From: a virus
Taxonomy: Duplodnaviria > Heunggongvirae > Uroviricota > Caudoviricetes
Virus record (IMG/VR): IMGVR_UViG_3300045450_000050
Span: 7,343-71,342 of that record
Reading direction: 5' to 3' (one strand)
DNA length: 64,000 bases
Made by a program: the position numbers and the translations under genes
Shown: in pieces, positions 4,701 through 44,023 of the stretch
Position numbering within the stretch: position 1 is the first letter of the stretch
How the letters are laid out: each line of letters begins with the position of its first letter
The notes under the pieces: generated by a model
Database searches by the model: none
The model's input: only the letters and a program-made list of their open reading frames with translations
What the model was told of the DNA's origin: nothing

Positions 4701-5402
4701 TCAGGTATCTCTGGCGAAAGTCAGAACTGATCTGAGCACCATCAGAGCCTCGTCATGGAGGACGCGAGCCAGCGGCTGGGAGATCTCCAACTCGGCCGCG
4801 ATCTGTGGGAACTCGTGACCGTAGTAGTACCGCAGTGCGATCACAGAACGCTGAGCGATGGGCATCGAGTTCAGCACCTGAGACATGGACAGACGGTAGC
4901 TGTCGGTGGGCAGCAAAGCTTCCGGCTTGCGTCCTGGATCGGCGTGCTCGTCCCACGCGTTGTCGAACGACACGCCTGAGGCCTCGACCGCCGCGACGAT
5001 GGAGCGGATCTTATCGGGAGCCATGCCGATGATGGGGGCTAGCTCCTCTGGTGACTTGCCTGCGCCGTAGCCGTTCTCCAGCAGACTCTTGTACGTGTCA
5101 CGCTGTCGGCGAGGGACGTGGTCCTGTGAGCGCTGCCAATCGAGGATGGCTCCCGCCACGACCTGCTTCGAGTAATTCCCGAACCCAAGGTACGGGTCGT
5201 AGTTCTCGTCGTTGTCTGGTCTGCTCGGGTCGAACTTCTGTGCCGCTTTCACCAGCCCCTGATAGGCGATGGAGATCAGCTCATCCAGCGGCAGCGTCTT
5301 GCCACTGCGCTCCCAGAAGCTCTTCGCAACGCCATGCGTCTGCGGGAGCCAGCCGGTGATGAATCTGTTCTGCTGCGGCGTGAGTGGTGTCTCCATGCTC
5401 AT
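4701..5402 (-). CDS. RNA polymerase sigma factor, FliA/WhiG (sigma-28)-like
   Basis: Region 2: DELISIAYQGLVKAAQKFDPSR..FGNY..VAGAILDWQRSQDHVPRRQR; region 4 HTH: QRSVIALRYYYGHEFPQIAAELEIS; 233 aa. Confidence 0.88.
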   Translation of the reverse strand: MSMETPLTPQQNRFITGWLPQTHGVAKSFWERSGKTLPLDELISIAYQGLVKAAQKFDPSRPDNDENYDPYLGFGNYSKQVVAGAILDWQRSQDHVPRRQRDTYKSLLENGYGAGKSPEELAPIIGMAPDKIRSIVAAVEASGVSFDNAWDEHADPGRKPEALLPTDSYRLSMSQVLNSMPIAQRSVIALRYYYGHEFPQIAAELEISQPLARVLHDEALMVLRSVLTFARDT

Positions 5403-7129
5403 CCTGACTGTCCAATGAGCTGGAGCAGCGCCAGGGGCGGCAGTGCGTTGAAGAGCTGGCTGTTCTCTTCCCAGATGTGGGACGCCAGCGCCGCTTCGCG
5501 CTCCAGCAGGGGAAGGTAACCCGCCTCCTGGGTCTTCACGGTGAGAAGGTTGTGCACGTAAACATGCTGGTACGCGCTACCGTCACGGCGAACGCGACCA
5601 GCGAGCTGTTCCATGCGGGCGGGGTTGAGGATCGTATCGACGTTCACGAGGTGGCGCGAGACCTGAAGGTTCAGCGACTGCTCGATAGCCTTCGTGCCGA
5701 TCAGGACCTTGCAGTTCGGGTCCTGCCAGAAACGCTCCTGCGCCTCATGGCGGGCCTGCTTGGACTTCTCCTCGCCCCACACGGTGACGAAGCCGATCTT
5801 CTCGGCCCGGAAGCGGTTCTGAAGTGCACGCACAGTGTTCTTCAGGTTGGCGAAGACCACGACCTTCTCGCCGACCAGATCACCTTCCGTCATCTGCTGA
5901 ATGACCCAGTCCATCTTGACTGACGTACCCGGCAGATCTTCCTCGCCCAGGGCTGCGAGCCCGGCACAGATGGCGGCACCGTAGTGGATCTGCGCGAGGG
6001 CGGTTGGGCGCTTCACCTGAGCGCCCTCCTCGCGGATGATCTTCAGCACGCCCTTCTTCAGCTCGGTGTACTTGGCACGCTGCGCAGGATATAGATCCAG
6101 GAACACGTCGTTGGGCATGATCGTCGGCAGGGTCACGTCATCGAGATCGTCAGCGGTACGGCGTAGATACAGCGGAGCGATCTGCTGCTTGACGATGTCG
6201 AGGTTCTTGTAGCCGGTGATGACCGTCTTGCGCTTCATCCGGCCTTCCTTCTCGTCGAACTGCTCGACGATGCCGGTACGCACGTGGCGACGCATGAAGG
6301 TTTCGATGCTGCCCAGCCGCTTGGCCCCGCCCACGCCATCGAAGATCGCGTGCAGCTCGGGGAGCTTCTTCTGAAGTGGTGTGCCGGTCATGATCACGTA
6401 CCGGTCAGTGCCTGGTGAGAGGCCGTACGTGCCACGGGCCCCCAGCTTGTCGAGGGTGAGGCTGGTCGCAGTCTCCGGGTTCCGAAGAGCGTCCACGTCA
6501 TCGGTGAGCACGAGCGAAAGGTCGAAGCGCTCGATCTGCTCGATGTCCATGCGCAGCATCTCTGGTCCCACCAGCAGAACCTGCCAGGGCTGAAGGTAGC
6601 GCTGACGCCGCTCTTTAGCCGAACCCTCGGCCAGCAGGATGTTGAGCCCGGGCATCATGCGCTGTAGCTCGGCCTGCCACTGATGCAGCGCTGGTGAACG
6701 AGGAACGATGACGACGCGCCCCATCCCCCCGTAGCGGTTCGAGCGGTCGCGCATCAGGCTCAGCTCGCCGGTCTCCAGCAGCATCGCCACCAGCCCGCCC
6801 GCTGAAGTGGTCTTGCCCGACCCCATGGTGTCGGCGAGCAGCGCGTGCTTCTTGAAATACAGCCAGGCGATGGAGACCTGCTGGTGATTGCGGAAGTGGA
6901 TCGCGCACTTCCGGCACATGGGCTTGGGCCGGTCGAAGACCTTGCGCGTCACGACCTCGCCGGAGGGCAACCGGACTTCCTCGTCCCAGCCCCGCGCATG
7001 CACTCGGCACAGCGCGTAGTTCCAGTGGGTCAGCTCAGGGAGCTTCCACGACTTGGACTCGTGGATCTGCCAAGCGAGGGTCTCTCGCGTGTCATCGGAG
7101 AAGCGGCGAACATCGAACTGTACTGGCAC
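5399..7129 (-). CDS. SNF2-family (SF2) helicase/ATPase with N-terminal Cys/His region
   Basis: LLADTMGSGKT, LTDDV (DExx-like), MTGTPLQ, SLNLQ, QLAGRVRR. Confidence 0.9.
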   Translation of the reverse strand: MPVQFDVRRFSDDTRETLAWQIHESKSWKLPELTHWNYALCRVHARGWDEEVRLPSGEVVTRKVFDRPKPMCRKCAIHFRNHQQVSIAWLYFKKHALLADTMGSGKTTSAGGLVAMLLETGELSLMRDRSNRYGGMGRVVIVPRSPALHQWQAELQRMMPGLNILLAEGSAKERRQRYLQPWQVLLVGPEMLRMDIEQIERFDLSLVLTDDVDALRNPETATSLTLDKLGARGTYGLSPGTDRYVIMTGTPLQKKLPELHAIFDGVGGAKRLGSIETFMRRHVRTGIVEQFDEKEGRMKRKTVITGYKNLDIVKQQIAPLYLRRTADDLDDVTLPTIMPNDVFLDLYPAQRAKYTELKKGVLKIIREEGAQVKRPTALAQIHYGAAICAGLAALGEEDLPGTSVKMDWVIQQMTEGDLVGEKVVVFANLKNTVRALQNRFRAEKIGFVTVWGEEKSKQARHEAQERFWQDPNCKVLIGTKAIEQSLNLQVSRHLVNVDTILNPARMEQLAGRVRRDGSAYQHVYVHNLLTVKTQEAGYLPLLEREAALASHIWEENSQLFNALPPLALLQLIGQSG

Positions 7130-7134
7130 GACCG

Positions 7135-7328
7135 TTATACGCCGAGAGGCTGCGAAGATTCACGCTCTGCCGCACGAGCTTCTGCTCGTTCTTGGCGCTT
7201 GCGTCGCTTTTCGAAGACCTTGTGGCTCTCCTCCGCCATCTCGACGACGTACGCATCGTCCATCCGGAACGCCGCATCTGCGGTTGCCCACAGGGCTTTG
7301 AGGCGCGGGATGGCGGAAGCGTCGATCA
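7135..7328 (-). CDS. possible small charged hypothetical protein
   Basis: Open frame VIDASAIPRLKAL...; lies between terminator and helicase promoter. Confidence 0.4.
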
Positions 7329-7361
7329 CGTCTGAGATTGTACCAAGGAAAGACTGAAACA

Positions 7362-7399
7362 CGGGTAGCCCGACCCTTCGAAAAGAGCCGGGCTACCCG
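7362..7399 (-). terminator. intrinsic terminator closing the late/lysis operon
   Basis: 11-bp stem CGGGTAGCCCG/CGGGCTACCCG followed on minus by TGTTTCAGTCTTT. Confidence 0.75.
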
Positions 7400-7408
7400 A
7401 GGGTGGCG

Positions 7409-8276: not shown

Positions 8277-8513
8277 TTAGCCCCTTCCTCGCATGCTCGC
8301 CTCTACCAGCTCGCCGAAGTGGTTCCGGGCGACCTGATCTTCGTTCTTGGAGACGAGAAGACTGACGTGGGGAACGCTGGCCTGTGCCGCCTGGAGATCG
8401 GCAATAGCGCGCTGGACCGCATTGTCAGCGAGTGCCTGCGTTGCCGCAGTGGTAGTTGGTGGCTCGACCGGCTTCGGGTGAAGCCAGTAGTAGAGGTCCT
8501 TCATGAAAGCCAT
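8277..8513 (-). CDS. hypothetical protein, lysis cassette
   Basis: Likely start MAFMKDLYYW with AAGGGG RBS. Confidence 0.65.
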   Translation of the reverse strand: MAFMKDLYYWLHPKPVEPPTTTAATQALADNAVQRAIADLQAAQASVPHVSLLVSKNEDQVARNHFGELVEASMRGRG

Positions 8514-8517
8514 GAGG

Positions 8518-8856
8518 TCACCGTTCCCCTTCGATGCTTCGATGGGAGTCTCGGTCGAACCAGGCACGGGCTGTTTCCATGAACCGGTTCGCGATTTCAG
8601 CAGAGCGAATGAGTTCACCGTTCTGCTTCTTCAGCTCTTGGCGTCCCGCCTCCGACGTGTCATGGGCGGTATGCCACGCATCCCTTTCCTTCTCCAGAGC
8701 GGCGATGCGGGCGTCCTTGTCGGCCATGCGGTCGACCAGAACAGAGCGTGGAACGACCCAACCACGCAGGATGCTGATCACCATCACGGTGACCAGCGCG
8801 CCGAGCGCGATCTGGTCGGTTGGGAGGCTGGTGAAGAACGTAAGGAACGCGTCCAT
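8518..8856 (-). CDS. N-terminally anchored membrane protein with coiled coil, lysis cassette
   Basis: MDAFLTFF..IALGALVTVMVISILRGW then DARIAALEKERDAW coiled coil. Confidence 0.7.
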   Translation of the reverse strand: MDAFLTFFTSLPTDQIALGALVTVMVISILRGWVVPRSVLVDRMADKDARIAALEKERDAWHTAHDTSEAGRQELKKQNGELIRSAEIANRFMETARAWFDRDSHRSIEGER

Positions 8857-8907: not shown

Positions 8908-8916
8908 GAGTATCGG
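8908..8916 (-). promoter_or_regulatory. late-promoter motif CCGATACTC upstream of lysis cassette
   Basis: One of 8 identical 9-mers; 52 nt upstream of the 8856 start. Confidence 0.65.
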
Positions 8917-22810: not shown

Positions 22811-22819
22811 GAGTATCGG
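22811..22819 (-). promoter_or_regulatory. late-promoter motif CCGATACTC upstream of major tail gene
   Basis: Exact 9-mer in 69-bp intergenic gap. Confidence 0.7.
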
Positions 22820-28710: not shown

Positions 28711-28719
28711 GAGTATCGG
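28711..28719 (-). promoter_or_regulatory. late-promoter motif CCGATACTC
   Basis: Exact 9-mer 22 nt upstream of the 28688 ATG. Confidence 0.7.
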
Positions 28720-30710: not shown

Positions 30711-31253
30711 TCAGGCCGCGGACGAGGTCTGCATGCTCGACAGACGCTCGATCTCGTCGGCGTACGTCTTGCCGGGCTCTTCGAGGGGCTCTTCGCCCAG
30801 CTCGACCGAGAGGGCCACGACGGGCTTCTCGGGAACCTGCTCCAGGAAGATCTCCTTGTCGAGCTTGCGCAGCTTCAGCATGGAGTCCTTCTTGGCAGGA
30901 AGGATGTAGCCGGTCAGGACGAGCTTGTCGACCTCACGCTCGGCCTCGTTGTCTGCGGCCTCCTGGTGAGCGGTCTCGACCTCGGCCGACAGCGACACGA
31001 TCTTGTCGTGCGCGTTGGTGACGGAGGCGACGAACTCTTCCACGGTCGCGTCGGTGGCGGAGAGAGCGAGAACGCCCTCGTCGGCCTGGAAGGTGCTGGC
31101 GACGGCGCTGGAGAGCGTGACGTACGCGTCGGCCTTGGGGCGCAGGGTGTCGACCTCGGCGCGCAGGGGGCGCAGATCCTCGACCTCGGCGGACAGGGCC
31201 ACCACGTCGAGACCATCGGTCTTCAGGAAGGCGATTGCCTCTTCACGGGTCAT
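30711..31253 (-). CDS. nested scaffolding protein from internal start (180 aa)
   Basis: In-frame ATG at 31253 with GAGGAG 6 nt upstream and CCGATACTC at 31310-31318. Confidence 0.6.
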   Translation of the reverse strand: MTREEAIAFLKTDGLDVVALSAEVEDLRPLRAEVDTLRPKADAYVTLSSAVASTFQADEGVLALSATDATVEEFVASVTNAHDKIVSLSAEVETAHQEAADNEAEREVDKLVLTGYILPAKKDSMLKLRKLDKEIFLEQVPEKPVVALSVELGEEPLEEPGKTYADEIERLSSMQTSSAA

Positions 31254-31829
31254 GGTCTTCTCCTCGGAGATCTCATCGTCGGTGAGGAAGATCACCTCGC
31301 CGTCCTCCGGAGTATCGGCCGACAGCTTGATGACCTCCTCGAACGGGTCCAGGTTGGTCACGTAGGGGCGGTTGGTCACGCACGCATGCAGCAGCGTGGG
31401 GCCCATGTTCTCGCCCGTCTCACGGTTCTCGTGAGCGAGGTTCATGAGCGCCGAAACGCCCAGGAGGGTCTTGCCGAGCTTGTCGGCGTCGTCGGTGCGC
31501 GCGTCGATGTCGACGTACACGCCCTTGTCGTTCTTCGAAACGCCGATGACCTCGCCGATGTTGCGGTCGGGGTCATCGTTGTGCTCGTTGCGTGCGCCTG
31601 CCTTGGGCACGTGCACGATCTCGCCCGACTTCGAGAAGTTCTCGATCAGCTTGTCCGCGAAGGCGTCGTCGATCTTGTACTTCTGACCGTTCTTGTAGCG
31701 GAGGTCGCCGAACTTCAGGATCTGCTTGCGGAAGACGCGGCCGGTGGCCTTCGCAGGCGCAGCGGCAGCAGAAAGCTCGACGAAGCTGTCATCCTTCGGG
31801 CCGCTGACGATAGCAAGTTCGTGTTCCAT
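30711..31829 (-). CDS. capsid maturation protease / scaffold fusion (Mu gpI-like)
   Basis: N-terminal protease-like region (HND, GVSA, LLHACVTNRPYV), C-terminal helical coiled-coil. Confidence 0.82.
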   Translation of the reverse strand: MEHELAIVSGPKDDSFVELSAAAAPAKATGRVFRKQILKFGDLRYKNGQKYKIDDAFADKLIENFSKSGEIVHVPKAGARNEHNDDPDRNIGEVIGVSKNDKGVYVDIDARTDDADKLGKTLLGVSALMNLAHENRETGENMGPTLLHACVTNRPYVTNLDPFEEVIKLSADTPEDGEVIFLTDDEISEEKTMTREEAIAFLKTDGLDVVALSAEVEDLRPLRAEVDTLRPKADAYVTLSSAVASTFQADEGVLALSATDATVEEFVASVTNAHDKIVSLSAEVETAHQEAADNEAEREVDKLVLTGYILPAKKDSMLKLRKLDKEIFLEQVPEKPVVALSVELGEEPLEEPGKTYADEIERLSSMQTSSAA

Positions 31830-31834
31830 GCGAG

Positions 31835-31843
31835 GAGTATCGG
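31835..31843 (-). promoter_or_regulatory. late-promoter motif, leaderless (5 nt before ATG)
   Basis: CCGATACTC-CTCGC-ATG, no SD. Confidence 0.72.
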
Positions 31844-31855
31844 ACCACGCACGCG

Positions 31856-32176
31856 CTAAACGTCTTCGGGGTCCGGAAGCATGTCCGGATCGTCCTCAGC
31901 GGGCTCTGCTGGTCCCTTCGGGCCACCCTCATCCACCGAGTCCTCCTCCACCGCGACCGGGAAGTCTTCAGCCTCCCACTCGTCGTACAGGTCGCTCAGC
32001 TCACGCCGGATGTCGTCGGTGAGGTCTTCGCCATCGCGCAGCTCCAGCAGCAGCTCGTTGATATCCTCGGAGTAGTCGGTGAACTCCGCGTCGAACAAGT
32101 CGTCGGGGTCCTCCGCCACCTTCTCGGCGAATGCCAAGAGCTGGGCCTTGGTGGGCACTTCGTAATCGTCGCTCAT
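31856..32176 (-). CDS. very acidic hypothetical protein
   Basis: 106 aa, Asp/Glu-rich, follows giant protein. Confidence 0.75.
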   Translation of the reverse strand: MSDDYEVPTKAQLLAFAEKVAEDPDDLFDAEFTDYSEDINELLLELRDGEDLTDDIRRELSDLYDEWEAEDFPVAVEEDSVDEGGPKGPAEPAEDDPDMLPDPEDV

Positions 32177-32184
32177 GATCTCTC

Positions 32185-35100
32185 TCAGTTCTGGAAGTAG
32201 TCGTCAAGGTTGCGGAGGCCGTAGTACCACGTCTCGCTCGACTGGTTACCCAGCAGGAGCCAGCCGATGGAGCGGCGTGCGCCGCGGGCGGTCTGTCCGC
32301 TCGCGTCTCGCACTTCGCCGAGGTAGGTCAGCTCACGCCACATGCGGTAGAGGCGGTCATTGCGCTCGTCGAGAGTCAGGTTCTGACGCTCGTTCAGCAG
32401 CTCGGTCATGCGGCGAGACAAGTCCTTCGCCTCGTCCAGGAACTCGGTGTAGTTCGGGAACTCACCACGCTCCGTGCGCTGGACAATCCGGGACAGGTTG
32501 TCGCGCAGCTTCGAGAACGCGGAGAAGTTCTGGACCTCGCGCTGCGGATCAGGGCGGAAGCCACGCCGAATCCAGGTGTGTGCTCCATTCCAGCCTCGGC
32601 TCGACAGACCGTGTACCTCCACCTCGGTGAGGCCGTGCTGGCGGTAGAACGCGAACAGGTGGTCCTGGACGGCAGCGAAGTTCGCGCCTCCCGCGTGCGC
32701 GACAGCGTTCTCGATGCGACCGTTGCCTCGAAGAACACGAGTCATCGAGCCCGACTTGCCGTCCGGAGTCGTGTAGCTGGCCGTGAACATCGCAGGTCCT
32801 GCCGACACGTCGATGACCGTGCCCTCAGGGAGAGCGCCCTTCAGCGCTGCACGGAGGCCCTTCTGAAGCTCACGGATGCCCTCATCAGTGCGTGCCATCG
32901 TCGCCCAGTCCCGGCTGTCTGCCGTGTCGAAACGAACCTCGGGCAGTGCGCGCGGGATGTCGTAACGCTCGACCACGTCCTGGGGGACTCGCGACAGACC
33001 GGCCTGCTCCAGGGTGCGCCCGGCCGAAGCAGTAGCGGTGCGCTGGGTAGGAACGGATGCCGGAGAGTCGCCCAGGAAGGTGTAGGTGCCGGGGCGGAGG
33101 TTGCGGATACGACGACGCTGACCACCAGGCACGCTGGTCAGGTACGTGCCGTCGATGCGCCACATGGTGCCGGTCGACGAGCGCACGAAGCTGTCGCGAG
33201 GCAGGCTCATCAGATCGGTCGGGTCGAAGCTCGCTCCGATCCGACTGTCGGGCATGGTCTGCGCGATGGCAGACACTGGCTCGTCCGGAGCGGTATCGCC
33301 AACAAACGTGAACTGGGCATTGAGGCGCTCGACGACAGGGAAACCGTGGTAGGTCGTGTCACTGCCGAGGCCATGAATGCCAGTTTCCGTGACACGGTAC
33401 TCGCGGCCTGATGCGCCGCGCACGTGCGAGCCCACAGGGGCCTGGCGAATGTCACTGCCTCGGAACGAGCCGCCCTGAGCGAAGCGCGGGTCCCCCGCGG
33501 TCGTCTCTGCCGTACGCGGGGTGCTCGACACATCTGGGACGCGCTCGGCTGGCGCGTCGGGAGTGCTCTCGACGGTGAATCGAGTGTTCCACTCGGCGGG
33601 GTTGCCGCGAACCTGATTGCCTCGCTCGGTGTACCAGCCATCAGCACGTCGCGTGTAGCGCGACGTGCCTCCACTGCGACGGGGATAGAGAATGACCGAA
33701 CCGACCGGCAGCTCTTCGATGCGTGCTGCATCCACCGTCTCCCCGCGGCTAGGCGAGGTGTTTGCCGGTGCAGGCGCTCGTCCCTCCATGTAGGTGTCCG
33801 GGTTGGCCTGCTCGAACGCGCGCACGAACTGCGCCCGCATCGAGACTGATCCGTCGTTGAGCGCCGAGACGCCCTCAGGACCCATCACGTCCTCGATGTA
33901 GTTCAGTACGTCGTTCTTGGCCTGGGCGTCGCGCCACGCGTCTTCCCAACTCATCTGGTCCAGCTCCTGGCGGCGGCTGGGCTCCATCGGGAAGGCACGC
34001 TCAGGAGCTGCGGGTGCCTCAGGCGTGGCAGGAGTGTCGGCCTCGGCGACGCCGTTGCGCTGGTTCCAGGCGCGGGTGAAGGACTGACGGATCGAGCCCT
34101 GCCCGCTGTTCATGCGAGCAATCTCCTCTTCGCCCAGCACCTCGCGGATGTAGGCGACCGAATCCCCCTGCTGGCGAGCGTCCAGGAATGCGTCTCGAAC
34201 ATTGTCGTAGTCGTCCAGCACATCCATGCGGTCGAGAGGCTCTTCGGGAACGGCTACCTCGGGCTCGACGACCTCTTCCGTCACCGGAGCCACGCTGGTG
34301 TCAGGCGCGGGTGCACGCAGGCTGGAACGGTTGTGGAAGGTCTGGCCGTTGCGCTCGTACGTCTCGTCCTCGGGGATGCCGTAGTACCCGGGCTCGCGGC
34401 CTTCAAGCTGCTCGCGCAGCATCTGGCGCAGCAGCTCGCGGTTGCGGCGCTTGTCGTACTGGCGCGCGATGGTCGTCATGGCCCGGCCCTGTCCGTCCTT
34501 GTACCGCTTCATGCGGAAGTAGGACGCGATGGCCACGGCGACGTTGAGGTCCTGGAGGGGCGAGCCCTGGCGTGCGAAGACGCGCTTCAGGATCTTGTCG
34601 GGGTCACCCTGGTCGTCGGACTGCTGCATGTTGTCGAGCACAGCGAGCGCCGTCTTGATGTCGGCAGCAGTCACGTCGATCTGCTCGGGACCCATGTTGG
34701 CCTCGGCGGAGGTGCCCGTCGAGCGCAGCCAGCGACCCAGCGTCACACGACGGTTGAAGTCTTCCAGCGTGAGGTTGTCCGGGATCAGTGTGGAGCCGGG
34801 GTCGGTGTACTCGATACCCAGCTTCTCGGCGGCGAGGCGGATCATGGCGGGCTTATGGCGCGCCGGGTTGCCCTCGACCGAATACTTCTCGATGGCCTTC
34901 TGAGCGAACGCGTCGCGGAACGCCTTCGAGCGGAACGGGCTGTCGTCGGGCAACAGGCTCGTGTTGAAGTACGCCCCCTGCATGGCTCGCGAGGCGACCT
35001 GGCTGGCGATGAACGTGCGCAGGTCGTACTCCGAGACCTTGGGCCCGCCGTCCCATGCCTCGATGGTCTTGTCGCGGCCCCAGTCTGCCCCGAAGATCTT

Positions 35101-37509
35101 GGACTTCTTGCTGATACCCGAACGCAGATTCCCGAACTGAAGACGACCATCGTGGATGGCCTGGAAGAGGCTGGCGTTGTTCTCGCCGAAGGAGTTGTAA
35201 CCGCGTCCGCCGTCGCCGACGAGGAACATGAACCCGCCGAAGTCCTCCTCGTCCCGCGTGCGCGTGAGGACGACCATGGCCTCGCGGCCACCGTTCTGGG
35301 ATGCAGGCACGGTAAGTGTGACCTGCTGGCCGGGCTCCATCTCGCGGAGGTGGCGGTAGTCGCTGATCTGGTCGCCACGACGGTACTGCGCGAGGTCGCT
35401 GATCTGGCGGGGAGGAGCGATGTCGCTCTCGGTCATCTCGCTCTCGGGAACCGAGGAGATCGAGACACGGTTGGTCGCGAGGGCAGGCTTCAGCGACGAG
35501 CCGGGCAGGCGGATGTTGTCCGCCGTCTGCACGCGGCCCTGACCGACAACGATGAGATCCTCGTCGCGCTCGTTGCGCCCATTGCCGCGCATGCGCAGGC
35601 GGGTGCCGATCTTCTGGGCGAGCAGGTCGCCCATAGAGCGCAGCTTGTCTCCGATGCTCCAGCGCTCCTTCGAGGGCGTCTGGAAGTCCTGGTTCGGAAC
35701 GTGCCACATGTCGAGGCCCGACGCGGCCAACGTCTCTGCGGGAATGCCGTCGACCGCCAGGCCATCCTGCATCTCCAGACGGAAGGTGCCGTCCTCGTGG
35801 CGTGTGCCCGTGAACTGCGAGCCAGCCGAGTCAGTGAACACGACCGAGTCAGCGGGGCGTACGTCCTCGAAGTCGTCGATGCCACCGAGCTTGCGCGTGG
35901 CACCCACGGGGCGTCCATCCGCCTCGGGAGCGTTGCGGGCGACGACGGTGATGTCGCTCTCCACGTCGCTCTCGCCGACGAAGTCGTTGCCGACCGTGCC
36001 CAGGGGGCTCTCCCAGCCGTCCTCGGTGCGTGTGACGAGCATGCCATCCGACGTGGTGGCGGCAGACCCAGGCTGTGCCTTCTCGGCGAAGTCCTGCGTC
36101 GTGGGTTCGCCGGGGGCAGGCATGCCTTCCACGACCTCAGGGGCCTCAGGCTCCTCGCGCTCGGCGGGTTCCTCAGGCACCTCTGCCCCGCGGCGCTCGC
36201 GCTCGGCGGCAAGGTCCTTGCGACGCTGGCGTGCCTCGCGGCGCGAGATCATCCCGGCGCGCAGAGCGTCGTCGATGTCTGCGAGAACGTCTTCCAGCTC
36301 CTGGTCGCCCAGCTCGCTTGCGTCGAGATCCGTGGTGTCGCGGGGCTCGTCGGGCTCGGGCGGCGACTGTGTACGAGCAACCACGTCGTCACGATTCGCG
36401 AACGACTCGTTGTCCGACGAATACTCCATGGAGTCGTTGACGCGGTTGCGGCGCACGGAGACGCGGCGACCGTTGACATCGCCTTCAGCAGTGCCGGTAG
36501 GACGCTTGCGCGACAGCTCTTCCAGGTCCGCGAGCTGCTGATCAGAAGACGGCTTGGCCGACGCAGCCGTGTTGTCGCGAGCGCGCTGCTCGCGCACCTG
36601 TGCTGCCTTGGCGGCGGGCTTCGATGGCACGGGCGGACGTGCCGGAGCCTCCTCCAGATCTGGCTGGCGGTCTGGGACAGGAGCGGCGTCCATCTCCGGC
36701 TGGCGTGGCTGATCCACGTCCGCCTCAGGCGCGTCGGGCTCGGTGCCGTCAGGACCGCCCGGAGCGTCAGCCTGGGCGAACTCCTGCTCGATACGCTCGT
36801 TGTTGCGACGCAGCTCCAGCTCGGCGGCGTTGACTGCGTTGTCGTCCAGGCCCGCGGCACGCAGGCCGTCCGCGATCTCGTTGATGCGCTCGTCGGACAA
36901 GTAGCCCGGCATGTCTTCGAGGTTGTCGGGACGGAACGAGTCGACATTGGGCCCGTCCCCCTCCGAAGCCTCTGCCTCACCCAGGTTGGGGTTGGGCTCG
37001 TCGGGAATCCAAACCGCGCTGCGGTCGTCGTCCAGCTCCTCGTTCAGCTCACGCTCCAGCTCACCCTCGAACTCGAAGGCGTTGCCCTTGTCCGTGATGC
37101 CGACGAGCTGGTAGTCGGGGGTGCGCACGATGGCGAAATTCTGGTACTTCTCCGAGCGGAAGGCGCGCGAACCCTCAGGGAAGCTGAAGCCCTTGTCACC
37201 GATGGCGATCTTCTTCGGGCCATCGGGCGTCACCTTGCGTGGTGCAGGCCCCGTACGGATCGAGTTCACGACCTCGCTGGAGGTGCGGCGCGTGCGGCCC
37301 GCGGCAGGCGGCTTGGAACCGAAGCGAGCATCGTCCTCGGGAACGGTGTATCCACGGCCACGAGCCTTGGCACGGGCGACGGCGTCGGCGGTGATAGGCG
37401 CGCCGATGGGCAGGCCGTACTTCTCTGCACCCTCGGGAGTGCGGACGTAGCGCGTCCCTGCCTTGCCGGAACGTCCCCACGATCCAGGACGGGGAGTCGA
37501 CTTAGCCAT
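32185..37509 (-). CDS. giant modular virion-associated protein with internal repeats and C-terminal GNAT-like domain
   Basis: 1774 aa in head module; see findings. Confidence 0.85.
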   Translation of the reverse strand: MAKSTPRPGSWGRSGKAGTRYVRTPEGAEKYGLPIGAPITADAVARAKARGRGYTVPEDDARFGSKPPAAGRTRRTSSEVVNSIRTGPAPRKVTPDGPKKIAIGDKGFSFPEGSRAFRSEKYQNFAIVRTPDYQLVGITDKGNAFEFEGELERELNEELDDDRSAVWIPDEPNPNLGEAEASEGDGPNVDSFRPDNLEDMPGYLSDERINEIADGLRAAGLDDNAVNAAELELRRNNERIEQEFAQADAPGGPDGTEPDAPEADVDQPRQPEMDAAPVPDRQPDLEEAPARPPVPSKPAAKAAQVREQRARDNTAASAKPSSDQQLADLEELSRKRPTGTAEGDVNGRRVSVRRNRVNDSMEYSSDNESFANRDDVVARTQSPPEPDEPRDTTDLDASELGDQELEDVLADIDDALRAGMISRREARQRRKDLAAERERRGAEVPEEPAEREEPEAPEVVEGMPAPGEPTTQDFAEKAQPGSAATTSDGMLVTRTEDGWESPLGTVGNDFVGESDVESDITVVARNAPEADGRPVGATRKLGGIDDFEDVRPADSVVFTDSAGSQFTGTRHEDGTFRLEMQDGLAVDGIPAETLAASGLDMWHVPNQDFQTPSKERWSIGDKLRSMGDLLAQKIGTRLRMRGNGRNERDEDLIVVGQGRVQTADNIRLPGSSLKPALATNRVSISSVPESEMTESDIAPPRQISDLAQYRRGDQISDYRHLREMEPGQQVTLTVPASQNGGREAMVVLTRTRDEEDFGGFMFLVGDGGRGYNSFGENNASLFQAIHDGRLQFGNLRSGISKKSKIFGADWGRDKTIEAWDGGPKVSEYDLRTFIASQVASRAMQGAYFNTSLLPDDSPFRSKAFRDAFAQKAIEKYSVEGNPARHKPAMIRLAAEKLGIEYTDPGSTLIPDNLTLEDFNRRVTLGRWLRSTGTSAEANMGPEQIDVTAADIKTALAVLDNMQQSDDQGDPDKILKRVFARQGSPLQDLNVAVAIASYFRMKRYKDGQGRAMTTIARQYDKRRNRELLRQMLREQLEGREPGYYGIPEDETYERNGQTFHNRSSLRAPAPDTSVAPVTEEVVEPEVAVPEEPLDRMDVLDDYDNVRDAFLDARQQGDSVAYIREVLGEEEIARMNSGQGSIRQSFTRAWNQRNGVAEADTPATPEAPAAPERAFPMEPSRRQELDQMSWEDAWRDAQAKNDVLNYIEDVMGPEGVSALNDGSVSMRAQFVRAFEQANPDTYMEGRAPAPANTSPSRGETVDAARIEELPVGSVILYPRRSGGTSRYTRRADGWYTERGNQVRGNPAEWNTRFTVESTPDAPAERVPDVSSTPRTAETTAGDPRFAQGGSFRGSDIRQAPVGSHVRGASGREYRVTETGIHGLGSDTTYHGFPVVERLNAQFTFVGDTAPDEPVSAIAQTMPDSRIGASFDPTDLMSLPRDSFVRSSTGTMWRIDGTYLTSVPGGQRRRIRNLRPGTYTFLGDSPASVPTQRTATASAGRTLEQAGLSRVPQDVVERYDIPRALPEVRFDTADSRDWATMARTDEGIRELQKGLRAALKGALPEGTVIDVSAGPAMFTASYTTPDGKSGSMTRVLRGNGRIENAVAHAGGANFAAVQDHLFAFYRQHGLTEVEVHGLSSRGWNGAHTWIRRGFRPDPQREVQNFSAFSKLRDNLSRIVQRTERGEFPNYTEFLDEAKDLSRRMTELLNERQNLTLDERNDRLYRMWRELTYLGEVRDASGQTARGARRSIGWLLLGNQSSETWYYGLRNLDDYFQN

Positions 37510-37540
37510 GTGCTCGCCTCATTTTCGGATTCGGAAGACT

Positions 37541-37774
37541 CTAGGAGTCCCGCAGAGTTGCGCCGGGAGTATCGGCCACAAGCTCCGAAACCTCATCGAT
37601 CTCCCCTTCGAGCAGCAGACCCAGGGTCAAGATGCGCTCTGGTGAACGCCCCGTGATGCGGTATTTCTGCTTCGTCGTGCGCGCATGCATCATCACCACC
37701 AGCAGGGCTTCTGCGGCAGCGAGGTACGTAGTGAAGGTGAAGCGGGCGGTCTTGCTCTCGAACGTCTTCATCAT
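37541..37774 (-). CDS. small hypothetical protein
   Basis: ATG overlaps MuF stop (ATGA); 77 aa. Confidence 0.55.
   Translation of the reverse strand: MMKTFESKTARFTFTTYLAAAEALLVVMMHARTTKQKYRITGRSPERILTLGLLLEGEIDEVSELVADTPGATLRDS
37567..37575 (-). promoter_or_regulatory. late-promoter motif upstream of giant protein
   Basis: Exact CCGATACTC 57 nt upstream of 37509 ATG. Confidence 0.68.
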
Positions 37775-38565
37775 CGTCTCCGGAGGAAAGAGATCAGCTT
37801 GCGCAGGCCGCGCGTGAACATCCCGAAGAGGCCAGCGTCCATCGCCTGGATCTCCTCCGTCGTGATGGTGTCGTTGTCTGTCTCGATGGGCTCGTCGAGA
37901 TCGAAAGAGTCGAAGAAATTGTCGAAGCGTACGTGCAGCATGACGAGACGGCACTTGCATCGAGGATGTCGGGGTGGCCCCTTCAGGTCGCCGTAGATCT
38001 TCAGCTTGTTCTCGTCGGTGACGAAGTCGTCGTCCAGGGGCACCTCTGTGCCATGTAGAGCGGCGCAGAACTCGCAGGGAGTGTTGTTGACGAAGTTCGC
38101 GACCCAGAGCTTGCGCAGACGAAAACCGAAGTCCTCCAGCTCGCGGCTGGCCTCCAGGACGGCATCGGTGTATCCACGGGTGGCGGCTACGCCTGCGCTG
38201 TGAGCCACGCGAGAGACCGCGCGGCGACGAGCAACCTCGTCGCGCTCGCTCGCCTTGTAGTCGCGAAGGTTGCGGCGAACGTCAGCCAGCAGCTCTGTCA
38301 GATACGCCGTGTTGAAGACGCCTACCGGCTTCCAGTCGGGGATGCCTGCCTGCTGAACGGTGTATGCCACACCTACCGCCGCAGCAGAACGGTAGGCCTC
38401 CCGGATGATGCGCTCCAGCCGGTGTCGGATGGTCTGCGCATCCTCATCCCCCGCATCCCAGGCGTCAAACGCCTCAGTGACGGCGCGACGGACAGACTCC
38501 TCTAGAGCCCGTACAGCGAGATGAGCTACGCGGGAGTCTTCGATCTGTCGCGCGAAGCCCGCCAT
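37771..38565 (-). CDS. MuF-like head morphogenesis protein
   Basis: TPCEFCAALHG ... PPRHPRCKCRL; directly after portal. Confidence 0.85.
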   Translation of the reverse strand: MAGFARQIEDSRVAHLAVRALEESVRRAVTEAFDAWDAGDEDAQTIRHRLERIIREAYRSAAAVGVAYTVQQAGIPDWKPVGVFNTAYLTELLADVRRNLRDYKASERDEVARRRAVSRVAHSAGVAATRGYTDAVLEASRELEDFGFRLRKLWVANFVNNTPCEFCAALHGTEVPLDDDFVTDENKLKIYGDLKGPPRHPRCKCRLVMLHVRFDNFFDSFDLDEPIETDNDTITTEEIQAMDAGLFGMFTRGLRKLISFLRRR

Positions 38566-38567: not shown

Positions 38568-38894
38568 TCAGTCCTTGGTGCCAGACTTCTTGCCGATGGC
38601 CTGATCTGCTCGGCCACGAGAGGCGACGAGGCTCTTCAGGTTGTCCATGAGCTGGTTGCTCGTCGAATACTCCTTGACAGCGACCGTGAACTGCTCCTGG
38701 ATGTCTCGCATGGCGTCGAGATTGCCGGTCTTCTTGGCGATGGCGAACTGACGCTGAAGCGAGGCCAGACGGACCTGCGTCATCGGGCGCACAGTACGCA
38801 CAACGTCAGGGCTCGTGCGGTCCTCGATGACAGTGCCGATGGGCACGCCGAACAGACGTGCTCCCTCGACCGTACGAACGCGACGCTCAGCCAT
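38568..38894 (-). CDS. small head-module protein with VRTxEGA..G.PIG N-terminal motif
   Basis: Start MAERRVRT at 38894 overlapping portal end. Confidence 0.75.
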   Translation of the reverse strand: MAERRVRTVEGARLFGVPIGTVIEDRTSPDVVRTVRPMTQVRLASLQRQFAIAKKTGNLDAMRDIQEQFTVAVKEYSTSNQLMDNLKSLVASRGRADQAIGKKSGTKD

Positions 38895-40632
38895 CTCGGA
38901 AGTCCTCTCCCACGCTGAGCATGACCATCTGGTCAGCCCAGTCGATCTGCTCATCAGTCAGACCGATGACGTTCTTCTTGGCCTTGGGCTTGCGCGGATC
39001 TGCGCCTCCCGCTGGGGCCTGCGGCGAGCGCGCCTGAATGGCAGAGCCTGGACGAGCCCCCGGCTTCTTGCCTGGGGGCGTAGGTGGCCCAGAAGAGGCT
39101 GCGGCGTTGGCAACGGCCACATCCGACTCCATGTCCACGCGAGCAGCCATGAGAGCGGCGATATCGACAGGCTCCGTGACTTCGCCCTCAATGCCGGGCG
39201 GCACTGCGGCCATGCCTGCGTCAGTGCCGGGCATGACCGGGTTGCCGTTTGCGTCGAGTGGTCCGTTCATAGCCAGCTCGTTTGCCTTCTCCTCGGCCTC
39301 ACGAGCTTCCACGGCCTCCCAGTCCACATCGATACCGAACTCATCGGCCTGGTGCTGCTCCAGTGCGCGGACGAACTCCGGCGTGATGGTCTGTGCCGAA
39401 GCGAGCTTGTCGAACGTGGCCGAGATCGCAGCCTTCTGCTCGTCGGAGAGCTTGCCCCACGTGAACTTCGGGTTCTTGCCCGTGTCGAAGTTCCACTCGA
39501 TGAGCTGCGGGATGATGTAGTGGTTGATCTGATTCGCGATCTCGTCCATGATCGTGCGCAGCATGAGCAGGAACATGTCGTCGCCGGGCTGAGCGAAGTT
39601 GACCAGCGAGCCCTCGTTCTGGCCCTTGCCGGTCTCCTGGTCGAAGAAGCCCGCCAGGATCGACTTCGACATCTGGTTGTTGTGGTGGTTGATCATCCCC
39701 AGGAAGTCGTAGCTGGCGTTCTCGTTCTTCACCTCCAGCTCGAAGCCCTCGGGGATCATGATCGACTGGGCGAACACGAGATCGTTCAGAGCCTTCCGGA
39801 ACTCTGCCTTGGCCGCGGGCGTAGCAGAGCCGGGGACCGTACCGATACGCGTACCCACGGCGGCGCGCTGGCCAGCCATGTGCGCATTGAAGTAGGTCTT
39901 GATCTTCTTGTCGTAGTGGTAGTACGCCGCCTGGAAGAAGGACACGCCGTAGAACTTGCGCTCTTCCTCCTGGGCCGCGTAGTAGAACGCGTAGGTGGGA
40001 TCGACGTACGCCTCGATGCTCTGCCCGTAGGTGTGCGTGCGCTGCTTGAACCCAGCGAAGCCACCCTGCTTGTCGGCGACGAAGGTCACTGTTTCGGAGG
40101 GGCGGTAGGCCAGCTTCTTCAGCGTGATCTTGCCGTCCAGTGGTCCGCGGCCGGGAATCCAGAAGACCTTCTCGAAGGCGCTGAAGCCGTCGAACAAAGC
40201 CTTCAAGAGCTGAGCCATGAAGCTGTGGAAGGTGACCGTCATGCCACCGCTGGAGGGAGGCAGCTCGAAGACGTTGCGGATGTACTCCGCCTCCTGCTCA
40301 CCGTCCTCGTCCGCGACGAACTCAGAGTTCGTGAGAGCTGCACGCAGAGGCAGCACGAGCAGACGATAGAGAGCGCGGGCCTGGCCGTCCATGCGGCGCA
40401 TGGTGACGAGCTGCGCCACGGTTGGTCCGTAGACATCCGCGTCCTCGCGCATGACCTCGTTCAGGTCAGGCTCGACCTTGCCGCGCGTGCGCTCGGGCGC
40501 AGCCCCGGTGAAAGGAGTTGTGAACGGCAGCGAGCTGTCAACACCGACTTCAACGCCGAGAGCCTCGACAGGAGGACGTGGCGTGGGAGCCGAAGCCTGG
40601 TCTGGACTGGAATCAGAAGTGTTCGTAGCCAC
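38887..40632 (-). CDS. portal protein (Mu gp29/DUF935-like)
   Basis: 581 aa after terminase; ALFDGFSAFEKV, YGVSFFQAAYY, LIEWNF. Confidence 0.88.
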   Translation of the reverse strand: MATNTSDSSPDQASAPTPRPPVEALGVEVGVDSSLPFTTPFTGAAPERTRGKVEPDLNEVMREDADVYGPTVAQLVTMRRMDGQARALYRLLVLPLRAALTNSEFVADEDGEQEAEYIRNVFELPPSSGGMTVTFHSFMAQLLKALFDGFSAFEKVFWIPGRGPLDGKITLKKLAYRPSETVTFVADKQGGFAGFKQRTHTYGQSIEAYVDPTYAFYYAAQEEERKFYGVSFFQAAYYHYDKKIKTYFNAHMAGQRAAVGTRIGTVPGSATPAAKAEFRKALNDLVFAQSIMIPEGFELEVKNENASYDFLGMINHHNNQMSKSILAGFFDQETGKGQNEGSLVNFAQPGDDMFLLMLRTIMDEIANQINHYIIPQLIEWNFDTGKNPKFTWGKLSDEQKAAISATFDKLASAQTITPEFVRALEQHQADEFGIDVDWEAVEAREAEEKANELAMNGPLDANGNPVMPGTDAGMAAVPPGIEGEVTEPVDIAALMAARVDMESDVAVANAAASSGPPTPPGKKPGARPGSAIQARSPQAPAGGADPRKPKAKKNVIGLTDEQIDWADQMVMLSVGEDFRDG

Positions 40633-42508
40633 CGCTGAACACCTCCTTCATTCCGATAGGGAGAGCTACTCCACCCTCGAAGCCCCCGCCCATCATATAG
40701 TCCATGCCTTCAAGTGCGGTTGTTGCATCGCCCACGTCGATGGTGTACGTCTGCACGTCGAACGTGGCTCCATTGGGGTCTTCGCCACCGCCCAGAATCA
40801 AGGCTCCGTTGACCGAGCACGCGAACGCGTCAGCCTCGTCCTTGGACCCTGCGGGCGGATGATCGACCTTCTTGCCGTCGACACGCGAGAGGGCTTCCAG
40901 CTCGTTCTGGAGGAGCTGACTGAAGGGCATGAGCAGGCGCGCCTCGGAAGCCACATCCTTCAGCGTCTTCCAGATGTCCGGGTCGGTGTCCGTCGACATC
41001 TTCTTGGACTCGATGCCGTGCATGAGCAGAATCTGGATGGCGTCTGTCGACTGGTAGCCGTCGAACGTGAACGACCCTACGGAGAAGCCGCGCTTGATCA
41101 GCTCGAATGCCAGATCGCGCACCCAGGTGATCTGAATCTCCCGAGGAGCCGAAGCACCTGTGAGGGGATGCAGTGCACCTACGTCGGCAGAGAGCGAGAT
41201 CGTGAAGTCGTTGCGGACGATGGGAGCCATGGTCTGCACGGAGGAGACGAAGCCATCCTCGTCCAGGACCTCGTCGGTGCGCTCGACCCAGGAGGCGACG
41301 TGACTCATCGATACACCTGCGCGGTCGCCCTTGATGGCCAGGTCCGCGTGGATCGCGTAGCGGGCCCCTGCGATGGCCTTGAAGTCGTCCGCGAAGTTGA
41401 AGATGGCCTTCCACCCCTGCACGCGAGCGCCGGTCTGTGGCGAGACGAACGTCGTCATGCGGTAGTCGACGGTGATCGGCTGCTCCGGCGCGACGACGGC
41501 CTGGGTGAAGATGACGGGGTTTCGGAAGTAGGCGTCGGTGGCTCGCGAGGGCTTGCACTCGTAGCGAGCTGCGGCCTCATCCGGGTCCTCGCGGTACTTG
41601 GCCGCGAAGTCCTCCTTGGTCTTGGTCGGGTTGACCTCCCACGTGGCGTAAGGGCCCGACGCGAAGAAGACCGAACTGCGGTCGCCGTACTTCTCGATGT
41701 CGGCCTTGGCCTCGTGCGTGAGGCGCTGGATCGTCGAACCCAGGTAGCGAGGAAACGAGATGGCGATGCGCTTGTAGTTCGAGGGGAATCGCGACATGGC
41801 CGAAGACTCGATCATGTTCAGGATCGACTCGGCAGAGGTCGAGGCCTCGCGCGCCTTGTTGCCCTGGCCGACCATCTCACCCTTGGCCTTGAAAGCGTCG
41901 ATCTCGTCGGCAACGCCGAGCAGGATGTTCAAACCTTCCTGGCTCTCAGCGTCCGAGTGACCCGAGATGGCTTGAACGTTCTTGGCGTAGTTGATCGTGT
42001 CGCGCTTGGGGTCGGCGTACTGACTCATGAACCCACGAGTGACCATCTTGGCCAGCGGGTCGAAGAACGCGCGCGACGCCTGGGCGGCGTTGACGGCGAT
42101 GTTGAGGAGATGGATCGAGTCGTCCAGGGGCATGCCGAAGTAGGCCTGCGGGCTCTTCAGGCACATCAGCAGGTACGCCACGCGAGCCGAGATGACGCGC
42201 ACGGTGGAGTCCTTGCCGCCGCCCTTGCCCCACTGGGCGACGATGCTGTTCTTCATCGGGATGGGGTCCGCCCAGTAGCCGCCGAACTCGACAGCCATCT
42301 GGTCGAACAGCGACTGCTGGTACACGCGCTCCCCGACGCGCACCAGCTCGATCTGCTTGGGCGAGAGCATCCAGTCCGCACCGAGGAACGCCTTGTCCCT
42401 GATGAAGACTTCGAGGCTGACGGGCTCGTGCTCGAAGATGTCAGAGAGAGGCTTGGGAGCCTCGTACTCTGCATCCTCGAACAGACCGTTCGAGATCTTC
42501 AGCGCCAT
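40613..42508 (-). CDS. terminase large subunit
   Basis: WGKGGGKDS (Walker A), GVADEID (Walker B), IHADLA / FDG / KDEADA nuclease acidic residues. Confidence 0.93.
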   Translation of the reverse strand: MALKISNGLFEDAEYEAPKPLSDIFEHEPVSLEVFIRDKAFLGADWMLSPKQIELVRVGERVYQQSLFDQMAVEFGGYWADPIPMKNSIVAQWGKGGGKDSTVRVISARVAYLLMCLKSPQAYFGMPLDDSIHLLNIAVNAAQASRAFFDPLAKMVTRGFMSQYADPKRDTINYAKNVQAISGHSDAESQEGLNILLGVADEIDAFKAKGEMVGQGNKAREASTSAESILNMIESSAMSRFPSNYKRIAISFPRYLGSTIQRLTHEAKADIEKYGDRSSVFFASGPYATWEVNPTKTKEDFAAKYREDPDEAAARYECKPSRATDAYFRNPVIFTQAVVAPEQPITVDYRMTTFVSPQTGARVQGWKAIFNFADDFKAIAGARYAIHADLAIKGDRAGVSMSHVASWVERTDEVLDEDGFVSSVQTMAPIVRNDFTISLSADVGALHPLTGASAPREIQITWVRDLAFELIKRGFSVGSFTFDGYQSTDAIQILLMHGIESKKMSTDTDPDIWKTLKDVASEARLLMPFSQLLQNELEALSRVDGKKVDHPPAGSKDEADAFACSVNGALILGGGEDPNGATFDVQTYTIDVGDATTALEGMDYMMGGGFEGGVALPIGMKEVFSGGYEHF

Positions 42509-43187: not shown

Positions 43188-43190
43188 GAA

Positions 43191-43547
43191 TCAGTTCTCC
43201 TTGGCGTCCACGACGACGGTCGAGTTGCCGTCCTTCGAGGCCTTGGCGATCTTCTCCGGCTCGAAGTCGGCGACGCCGCGCAGCTCGGGGTCGTGGTCGC
43301 CCTCGCGACGGGTGTTGATGCCGTCCTCGCTGAGCGTGAGCGCGGCGGAGGGGTTCTCGGGGTTGTTGTGCTCGGTGAGGCTGCTCTGGGCGAACGGCGA
43401 GGACTCGGGCTCGCGACCGAGACGCTCCAGCTCGTCAGCGTAGGTGTTGCCGTTGACGAGCTTCTCGCCCTTGTAGAGCTGGTTCGACAGCACCTTGTCG
43501 CCCCGCTTGTTGATCTTCTCGATGGAGTAGTCGTAGTCGATGGTCAT
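43191..43547 (-). CDS. hypothetical protein
   Basis: 118 aa with AAGGAG RBS. Confidence 0.75.
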   Translation of the reverse strand: MTIDYDYSIEKINKRGDKVLSNQLYKGEKLVNGNTYADELERLGREPESSPFAQSSLTEHNNPENPSAALTLSEDGINTRREGDHDPELRGVADFEPEKIAKASKDGNSTVVVDAKEN

Positions 43548-43562
43548 GATCTCTCTCCTTGC

Positions 43563-44009
43563 TCAGTAGCCCTTGGAGCTGAACTGCTCCTTCAGGAAGC
43601 GCACGACTTCCTTGCGGTTCTCGTCGTCGCGTACCTTCTTGACGGCAGCGTTCGTGATCTGGATGAAGTCGTTGACGATGCCCTCGGAGATCTTCTCCTT
43701 GTTGTCCTTCAGGACCTGACGCCACTCAGCCATCAGCGAGATCCACTGGGCCTTGGCATCCTTGCGCGAGTTCGCGCCGGGCCAGGTGTCGGTGTCGTCG
43801 CGGTACTTCATCTCGACGAAGTCGGCGGCGATCTGCGCGAGCAGCAGGAGCTGATTGGTCTCCATGGGGATGCCCTCAGCCTCGCGGCGCATGCGAGCGA
43901 CGATCTCGTCGTACAGCTCTCTCAGGGCCTCGTTCTCGCGGATGTGCGCAGGCGGCGTGAACGCATGGGCCATCCGATCCACGGGCGCAGTATCGAGAGG
44001 ACTCGTCAT
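43563..44009 (-). CDS. possible terminase small subunit
   Basis: First gene after late-promoter motif; helical 148 aa; three genes upstream of TerL; call is by position only. Confidence 0.5.
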   Translation of the reverse strand: MTSPLDTAPVDRMAHAFTPPAHIRENEALRELYDEIVARMRREAEGIPMETNQLLLLAQIAADFVEMKYRDDTDTWPGANSRKDAKAQWISLMAEWRQVLKDNKEKISEGIVNDFIQITNAAVKKVRDDENRKEVVRFLKEQFSSKGY

Positions 44010-44014
44010 GCACT

Positions 44015-44023
44015 GAGTATCGG
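44015..44023 (-). promoter_or_regulatory. late-promoter motif at head of morphogenesis operon, leaderless
   Basis: CCGATACTC-AGTGC-ATG, same 5-nt spacing as at 31835. Confidence 0.72.

Follow-up and report, generated by a model that had tools for sequence, protein, structure and literature searches.

A repeated strand-specific motif ahead of late genes and a sigma-28-like factor point to a phage-encoded late promoter system in a relative of Microbacterium phage Magritte

Results

The repeated motif and the genes behind it

The DNA analysed here, a window of 64,000 nucleotides, corresponds to bases 7343-71342 of a 135,342-bp virus contig of IMG/VR, a phage genome of 63.5% GC in which the minus strand carries nearly all genes. 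Two of its features are reported: a gene coding for a sigma factor, called sigma-1 below (4701..5402, minus strand, 233 aa), and a nine-base sequence, CCGATACTC, repeated ahead of late-type genes, which sigma-1 is proposed to read. Microbacterium phage Magritte (OR553905, 133 kb; PMC11663251) is the only isolated relative; it shares the same genome plan, with a median protein identity of ~62% over 112 shared proteins. Since a megablast search of the window against a phage collection matched Magritte only, closer isolated relatives appear to be absent.

Eight exact matches to CCGATACTC were found in the window, each of them on the coding (minus) strand; they are the same eight positions that a sequence-only reading of this DNA had listed. 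For the expectation, 100 dinucleotide shuffles of the 64-kb window were scored on both strands. They contained 0.36 copies on average and 3 at most, and none reached 8. Over the whole 135,342-bp genome, 13 copies are present on the coding strand versus 0 on the opposite one, and one-mismatch variants are almost absent. The flanks of the 13 copies are unrelated to one another. The base preceding the motif is G in five of the eight window sites, as that reading had noticed, and in 8 of the 13 genome sites (position -15 in the register given below), and the base following it is C in 9 of the 13. Eleven of the 13 copies are intergenic, typically 6-26 nt past a stop codon and 5-57 nt ahead of a conserved start; the other two lie in the last codons of a small gp16-like open reading frame (ORF) and at codon 170 of a protease/scaffold ORF. 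Several sites come after hairpins or stop codons and open new gene blocks.

The eight window sites, all on the minus strand, are as follows from the low-numbered end. The site at 8908..8916 is ahead of a holin cassette consisting of a DUF7620 gene (8277-8618) and a Phage_holin_2 gene (PF23778, 7891-8274). The site at 22811..22819 follows the previous stop codon by 10 nt and precedes the gene of the major tail protein (22181-22759) by 51 nt, and that at 28711..28719 is 22 nt before the ATG of a head-region gene (28026-28688) which has a Shine-Dalgarno (SD) sequence. Two sites belong to the protease/scaffold gene (30711-31829, PF10123), one at 31835..31843, 5 nt before its ATG in a leaderless geometry, and one at 31310..31318, inside this Mu-I-like ORF at the codon 170 mentioned above, with an in-frame GTG 14 nt downstream. 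The site at 37567..37575 is placed 57 nt upstream of a giant protein gene (1774 aa, 32185-37509), in the end of the gp16-like ORF. The one at 44015..44023 is found 6 nt past the previous stop codon and 5 nt before an ATG (44009), that of the first gene of the operon leading into the terminase (40613-42508) and portal (38887-40632) genes. Finally, the site at 57334..57342 precedes a 79-aa ORF (57076-57315), with 18 nt to its ATG; this ORF is a homologue of Magritte gp232 to which no function is assigned. The late character of the downstream genes, namely holin, major tail, head, protease/scaffold, giant protein and terminase/portal operon, was as first described. So was the gap of exactly 5 nt to an ATG lacking SD at 31835 and 44015, and a third such copy was found outside the window, at genome position 125217.

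Other copies outside the window precede small genes beside the tRNA array. Also outside the window, the endolysin gene, a homologue of Magritte gp116, is preceded by two tandem motifs 15 nt apart (minus strand, genome 119238-119261), and a tandem pair occurs in a relative named G001 as well, at 8723/8748. A search for sigma70-consensus promoter-like sites on both strands of the 16-kb head-tail region (window 22000-38000) returned none, for 1.4 expected.

The motif changes in concert in relatives

The sequence-only reading had proposed a search for the motif in relatives. Scans of IMG/VR based on the capsid and on the sigma factor gave 27 + 8 loci, from which seven whole contigs were fetched. 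The comparison set comprised eight relatives, Magritte and seven IMG/VR genomes (G001 to G007), plus four metagenome contigs (L086, L088, L089 and L091 are the handles used below for individual loci). K-mer enrichment and comparison of loci uncovered lineage variants of the motif at orthologous sites.

In Magritte, CCGATACTC was present as one reverse-strand copy only. Unbiased de novo k-mer enrichment yielded another sequence, CGATATCCCTG, with 11 copies, all on the coding strand. Ten of these 11 sites are orthologous to sites of the phage studied here, and their flanks are often identical. The orthologue of the 22811 site, at 29543 in Magritte, reads CGATATCCCTG, and those of the sites at 28711, 44015 and 57334 are at 21968, 5342 and 121539, respectively. 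At the giant gene (Magritte 11983), the flanks ...gaggtttcggagcttgtgg[motif]g.gcaactctgcggga are common to both phages, with CGATATCCCTG replacing the motif of the window. In an alignment of the intergenic region at 8908 from six phages, the sole conserved block was GG(C/T)CGATA followed by a lineage-specific extension, CTC or TCCCTG. The Magritte arrangement CGATATCCCTG-gac-ATG also suggests that gp9 starts at 5353, and not at the annotated 5332.

Further dialects, again on the coding strand only, were CGATAGTA in G003, G005, G006 and many fragments, CCGATAG(a/g/t) in G002 and G007, GGCCGATAATTCC in G004 and CTGCCAATGGTAG in G001. The variants GCCGATAATTCC and GCCAATGGTAG were each listed for one relative, and at locus P0026 no late site was seen within the flanks examined. 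At the protease/scaffold gene, the arrangement CGATA-N8-ATG (sometimes N9) is conserved in at least 12 lineages, with intervening bases that vary.

The copy inside the scaffold ORF (31310) is kept in ~20 lineages, where it follows the dialect of each lineage. With the dialect, the protein sequence changes at this point from Asp-Thr to Asp-Ile or Asn-Gly, and the site uses the rare Asp codon GAT (18.6% of Asp codons). Because this copy switches dialect, alters residues and keeps the rare GAT, we concluded that selection acts on the DNA and not on the protein. The motif at codon 170 is followed in the scaffold ORFs by an in-frame GTG or ATG. Mu protein I is a protease/scaffold of this type, and Mu makes its scaffold Z from an internal start. 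This suggests that the internal motif is a promoter giving a nested C-terminal scaffold product from a transcript of its own.

Register of the motif

With the A of the leaderless ATG taken as +1, the motif reads g-15 C-14 C-13 G-12 A-11 T-10 A-9 C-8 T-7 C-6. This register derives from the CGATA-N8-ATG spacing at leaderless starts, not from mapped transcription start sites (TSSs). In the open complex of Pseudomonas aeruginosa sigma-28, the -10 element is (-15)GCCGATAA(-8), with A-11 flipped; R97 (R91 in E. coli) reads -15/-14, R80 (E. coli R74) reads -12, and D87 (E. coli D81) sits at -13/-12 (PMC12784957). Contacts with the template strand in the E. coli FliA structure are Q73 with -12G and R74 with -13C, along with R84, R94, R95 and R98 (bioRxiv 10.1101/2020.01.02.893370). 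From the spacing at leaderless starts, the register of the motif therefore coincides with that of sigma-28, and its CCGATA core corresponds to 6 of the 8 positions of GCCGATAA.

Sigma-1

Sigma-1 matches Pfam Sigma70_r2 and r4, and its best family is NCBIfam TIGR02479 (FliA_WhiG; 61.4 bits, E 9.8e-17), with residues 17-227 of 233 aligned to positions 4-223 of 224. Regions 2, 3 and 4 are present, region 1.1 is not, and there is no large insert, which is the architecture of group-3 sigma factors (sigma2-sigma3-sigma4). Its best sigma matches in the PDB were E. coli FliA in an open complex (6pmi_F, with 38-227 aligned to 40-236) and a 278-aa sigma, 6pfv_A, which we take to be Streptomyces WhiG. 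In PHROGs it falls into PHROG 351, 'RNA polymerase sigma factor' (E 2e-17).

The region which in FliA reads the -10 element aligns as YSKQVVAGAILDWQRSQDHVPRRQR. The FliA residues kept in sigma-1 are Y70, Q73, G77, D81, R84, D87, P90-R91 and R94, of which Y70, Q73, D81, R84, D87, R91 and R94 are reported to contact positions -15 to -11 (PMC12784957; bioRxiv 10.1101/2020.01.02.893370). Sigma-1 has D in place of FliA R95 and K in place of R98.

A collection of 5.8 billion proteins held 55 homologues of sigma-1, all metagenomic and many of them on contigs of 115-135 kb. One was labelled FliA by JGI, and none was a named cellular FliA/WhiG. Among phages, tblastn with sigma-1 returned Magritte, then only distant sigma factors of gut phages and cyanophages (22-26% identity). 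The Magritte orthologue is gp47, annotated 'DNA binding protein' (45.9% identity). The first supposition, a sigma factor captured from a host, is not supported by these results, nor is a capture of recent date: since the homologues found are all on phage-like contigs, they rather form a phage clade of sigma-28-like factors. The 82-aa ORF next to sigma-1 (4402-4650), the sole ORF scanned for a FlgM/RsiG-like anti-sigma, gave no PHROGs match.

Co-variation of sigma-1 and the motif

The Asp equivalent to FliA D81 is invariant among 62 family members except in G001, where it is Met, together with changes G77F and L80Q. G001 is also the only genome in which the late core is altered, at -12 (G to A) and at -9 (A to G). 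This co-change is a single event; judged from the sequences, it suggests a link between sigma-1 and the motif. Val occupies the FliA-I75 position in the four phages with the CTC extension (the phage studied here, L086, L088 and L089), and those with the TCCCTG extension (Magritte and L091) share 'KRRITG'. Together, these comparisons suggest that motif and sigma factor change jointly across relatives.

The sigma-1 operon and other promoter-like classes

The sigma-1 gene is located in the replication module, outside the late units, directly behind the gene of a SNF2-type helicase (5399..7129, minus strand, from the ORF map), which is 86.5% identical to Magritte gp46 and whose orthologues carry Pfam SNF2-rel_dom and Helicase_C. 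The end of the helicase gene and the start of sigma-1 share 4 nt, and co-transcription of the two genes is therefore probable. They are behind a different promoter-like motif, GCGTATAAC (7134..7142, minus strand), 4 nt before the GTG of the helicase gene, which we tentatively place in a second, possibly middle, class and which is proposed to drive the pair. The arrangement GGCGTATAAC-N4-GTG ahead of the helicase is conserved in the phage studied here, Magritte, L086, L088, L089 and L091.

This middle(?) class has the form GTGnAT-N16-GGCGTATAACGG, with ATG or GTG following after 4 nt, and counts 7-10 sites in the genome, of which three lie on the minus strand of the window (7134-7142, 49019-49028 and 56916-56925). 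Its Magritte form is GCGTAyCACyCAC-ATG (~16 sites), that of G001 GGCGTAyCACAGGC-ATG, and that of G003 GGCGTATAAG. In this phage and in Magritte, nearly all copies keep a fixed spacing to ATG. The GGCGTATAAC type looks like a promoter of the extracytoplasmic function (ECF) kind, with a CGT-type -10. A second sigma gene, sigma-2 (225 aa; minus strand; G000:C1:6138-6698, where G000 is the genome of this contig, and locus L059:1100-1777), is located ~650-1200 bases before the window start. Sigma-2 is weakly ECF-like (TIGR02937 23.6 bits, Sigma70_r2 22.8 bits), with a C-terminal helix-turn-helix (HTH), and is conserved in Magritte, G001-G004 and G007; its Magritte counterpart, gp60, is also annotated 'DNA binding protein' (49.8% identity). 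The two Magritte sigma homologues with this label, possibly an annotation issue, are at L001 47155-47895 and L002 3644-4345. Sigma-2 is perhaps the reader of the GCGTAT class.

A third, early class comprises ~20 cassettes in the small-gene region, of the form cTTGyGC-GTTAGCGCGTGAC-GTGCAAGAATAG, in which 17 nt separate a -35 from an extended -10, as in sigmaA promoters; the Magritte equivalent carries TGCAATAAT. Embedded in these ~20 cassettes is TTAGCGCG(T), which is found by itself too, on both strands (25 + 7 copies), and is conserved in Magritte. In the window its 5' ends on the minus strand are at 63700, 60398, 53030, 49497, 49179 and 31859, and ~18 more are outside. One copy precedes the late motif of the scaffold gene by 7 nt, and ACGCGCTA, the reversed form, is present near other sites. 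It is probably the operator of a candidate regulator.

The gene order of this genome is circularly permuted compared to Magritte, so that the contig ends are probably not true genome ends. The direct repeat found at these ends is 127 bp long, as is a common assembler k-mer, and may be an assembly overlap.

Discussion

The counts and positions of the motif, its concerted variation, the conserved residues and the spacing lead us to infer that CCGATACTC is probably a late promoter of the '-10-only' kind (-14 to -6), and that host core RNA polymerase (RNAP) with sigma-1, rather than with another factor, reads it. The idea that a sigma-28-like factor of the phage runs a partly leaderless late transcription, put forward in the sequence-only reading, gains support from the place of the motif, its concerted change, its register, the residues kept and their co-variation. 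In the proposed mechanism, sigma-1 would be made from the helicase-sigma operon, behind its own leaderless promoter of the GGCGTATAAC type, and would replace the host sigma on the core polymerase. As FliA does, it would recognise C-14 C-13 G-12 as duplex and flip A-11, and it would also read the lineage-specific extension downstream, CTC in this phage. Transcription would start ~8 nt after CGATA; with such a start, three genes would have leaderless mRNAs whose first base is the A of ATG, and short leaders containing an SD would precede the rest. The factor would act on the genes for packaging, head, tail, holins and endolysin, and the start inside the protease/scaffold gene may supply the nested scaffold product. 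The order of events would then be host sigmaA for early genes, the middle class (perhaps via sigma-2), sigma-1, and the late genes. Such a cascade is likely the most economical reading. The sigma-1 gene stands outside the late units, and the repeated late sequence is unique and distinct from the sigmaA-like early cassettes.

Several observations weigh against this assignment. The assignment of sigma-1 to the FliA/WhiG family stands as regards best family and full-length alignment; its score of 61.4 bits is far under the curated cut-off of TIGR02479 (189.6). Residues R74 and R76 of FliA are V and A in sigma-1, the R74 position being R or K in most relatives. The -35 element is missing. In actinobacteria, the -35 of sigma-28/WhiG is xT(C/A)Ax, with a spacer of ~16 nt (PMC13595943). 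Among 53 late sites from 7 genomes, this sequence or TAAA was found at one site at most for each spacer length from 13 to 19, two in all, and the information content over -45..-16 in the 7 site sets showed nothing upstream of -16 and no common -35. No shared -35 had been evident at first either, and the region-4 HTH is kept in sigma-1 despite this lack. A candidate -35, GGTT ~15 nt upstream, occurred only in a subset of relatives with the GTA dialect, not in this phage. The correlation of the CTC and TCCCTG extensions with sigma residues may reflect only shared ancestry. Sigma-1 was also considered as an exceptionally fast-evolving protein, which is only partly true, as it has the 23rd lowest identity of the 112 shared proteins. 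Lastly, because sigma-2 is similarly conserved and diverged, the link from sigma-1 to the motif relies on the sigma-28 resemblance and on one D-to-M event. Given the low profile score, the missing -35 and a motif that reaches -6/-5, we call sigma-1 sigma-28-like in mechanism, and not a member of FliA/WhiG.

The late promoter could be read by another factor, either sigma-2, a host sigma of the FliA/WhiG type, or host sigmaA with a phage activator. Sigma-2, which is conserved in this phage, Magritte, G001-G004 and G007, shows the same extent of divergence as sigma-1, and CCGATA is a universal sigma-28 core that a host sigma-28 could read. Sigma-2 is nevertheless weakly ECF-like, and the separate class GTGnAT-N16-GCGTATAAC suits it better. 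In G001 the core of this ECF-like class is kept while the late core is not, and therefore sigma-1 fits the late reader better than sigma-2. A conserved host sigma-28 would leave unexplained both the lineage extensions and the combination of a CCAATG core with D81M in G001. As for sigmaA, there is no -35 for it, and GATACT lacks the first T of TANNNT, the form of the actinobacterial -10 element. We think a different reader unlikely.

The motif might instead act in RNA, leaderless mRNAs being produced by cleavage of polycistronic late messages, or be a DNA site for something other than a sigma factor, such as antiterminator loading or a repressor operator. It is exact and strictly strand-specific, as an RNA site could be, cleavage could also yield a fixed distance to ATG, and genes for RNA handling exist in the group, among them those in Magritte for Ro60, an RNA ligase and a HicA-like toxin. 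Against this, the core and the register match the -10 of sigma-28, the phage sigma keeps the residues that read such an element, and the only sigma altered at D81 belongs to the only phage with an altered core. Several sites also open new gene blocks after hairpins or stop codons, and no co-varying sequence-specific RNase was identified, though none was systematically sought. This leaves such sites quite improbable in our view. That the repeats have no function, and result from chance or duplication, can appeal to the short length of the motif only. It is opposed by 8 copies for 0.36 expected, by the 13:0 strand split, by the unrelated flanks and by concerted switching in eight other genomes, and we regard it as next to impossible.

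A wider proposal, which is possible although we hesitate to favour it, concerns the whole Magritte-like clade of large actinobacterial siphophages (84-140 kb). These phages might share a three-tier programme with two phage sigmas, in which host sigmaA would serve the early cassettes, the ECF-like sigma the leaderless GCGTAT middle promoters, and the sigma-28-like sigma the -10-only late ones. The late tier would have split into at least 5 distinct dialects (CTC, TCCCTG, GTA, AATTCC and the CCAATG core) through few substitutions in region 2.4, for instance at the FliA-D81 position for base -12.

Phage-encoded late sigma factors are known, and a sigma-28-like late switch in this phage group is probably undescribed. 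A literature search found no sigma cascade described for actinobacterial phages and none with a sigma-28-type factor, and we know of no such cascade ourselves. The Magritte genome announcement (PMC11663251) mentions neither sigma factors nor promoters. As GenBank gives the Magritte orthologues no label other than 'DNA binding protein', the result would assign functions to two genes per genome. The numbers of promoters predicted per genome are ~13 late, ~10 middle and ~20 early. Magritte grows on M. foliorum, in a laboratory strain, which makes the predictions directly testable: TSSs should be 8 nt after CGATA, late mRNAs should be leaderless, a sigma swap should alter the preference, and D-to-M should alter the base read at -12. 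If the proposal holds, each sigma would prefer its own dialect among CCGATACTC, CGATATCCCTG, CGATAGTA and CCAATGGTAG, the dialects would inform on how group-3 sigmas read -12 to -6, and the pairs would serve as compact and orthogonal promoter/sigma parts in Gram-positive hosts of high GC.

Comparison with known systems

Like the bacterial sigma-28 factors FliA, SigD and WhiG, sigma-1 has the group-3 sigma2-3-4 arrangement and a stretch 'LDxxRSxDxVPR' in which D81, R84, D87 and R91 are kept. Its presumed promoters resemble those of sigma-28 (TAAA-N15-GCCGATAA) by the CCGATA core at -14 to -9, with A at -11, and G004 contains the exact consensus GCCGATAA within its motif. They differ by the absence of -35 and by a motif which reaches -6/-5 through lineage-specific sequence; on the protein side, the score is 61 versus 189.6 bits, and R74 and R76 are replaced. 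The targets would be phage late genes, not flagellar or sporulation genes, and the homologues found are all on phage-like contigs.

Phage sigma cascades include those of Bacillus phage SPO1 (gp28, then gp33/34), T4 (gp55) and phiEco32 (gp36). SPO1 has been presented as a phage-encoded sigma cascade (PMC13401047). The system proposed here would work as these do, with a sigma of its own from an earlier class, the host core RNAP and a unique late promoter sequence, for which, as with T4 gp55, an element of the -10 type seems to be sufficient. Unlike them, it would involve a FliA-like group-3 lineage of actinobacterial phages, and maybe two sigmas, ECF-like and sigma-28-like; leaderless transcripts are predicted to be a substantial fraction, and the dialects differ between close relatives. 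Magritte itself has orthologous sigma genes (gp47 and gp60) and late sites, with CGATATCCCTG as late motif instead.

The single-subunit RNAPs of T7, T3 and SP6 and their promoters are the model of polymerase-promoter co-evolution. As in the T7 group, the promoters proposed here are long, exact and strand-specific, ~10-17 per genome, and relatives differ at few positions along with the recognition protein. If the clade-wide proposal is true, these phages would provide a natural orthogonal set of sigmas and promoters, whose co-evolution would compare to that of the T7/T3/SP6 RNAPs. The annotation of Magritte shows no phage RNAP gene, and, unlike in the T7 group, the specificity factor would be a sigma subunit acting on the host core enzyme.

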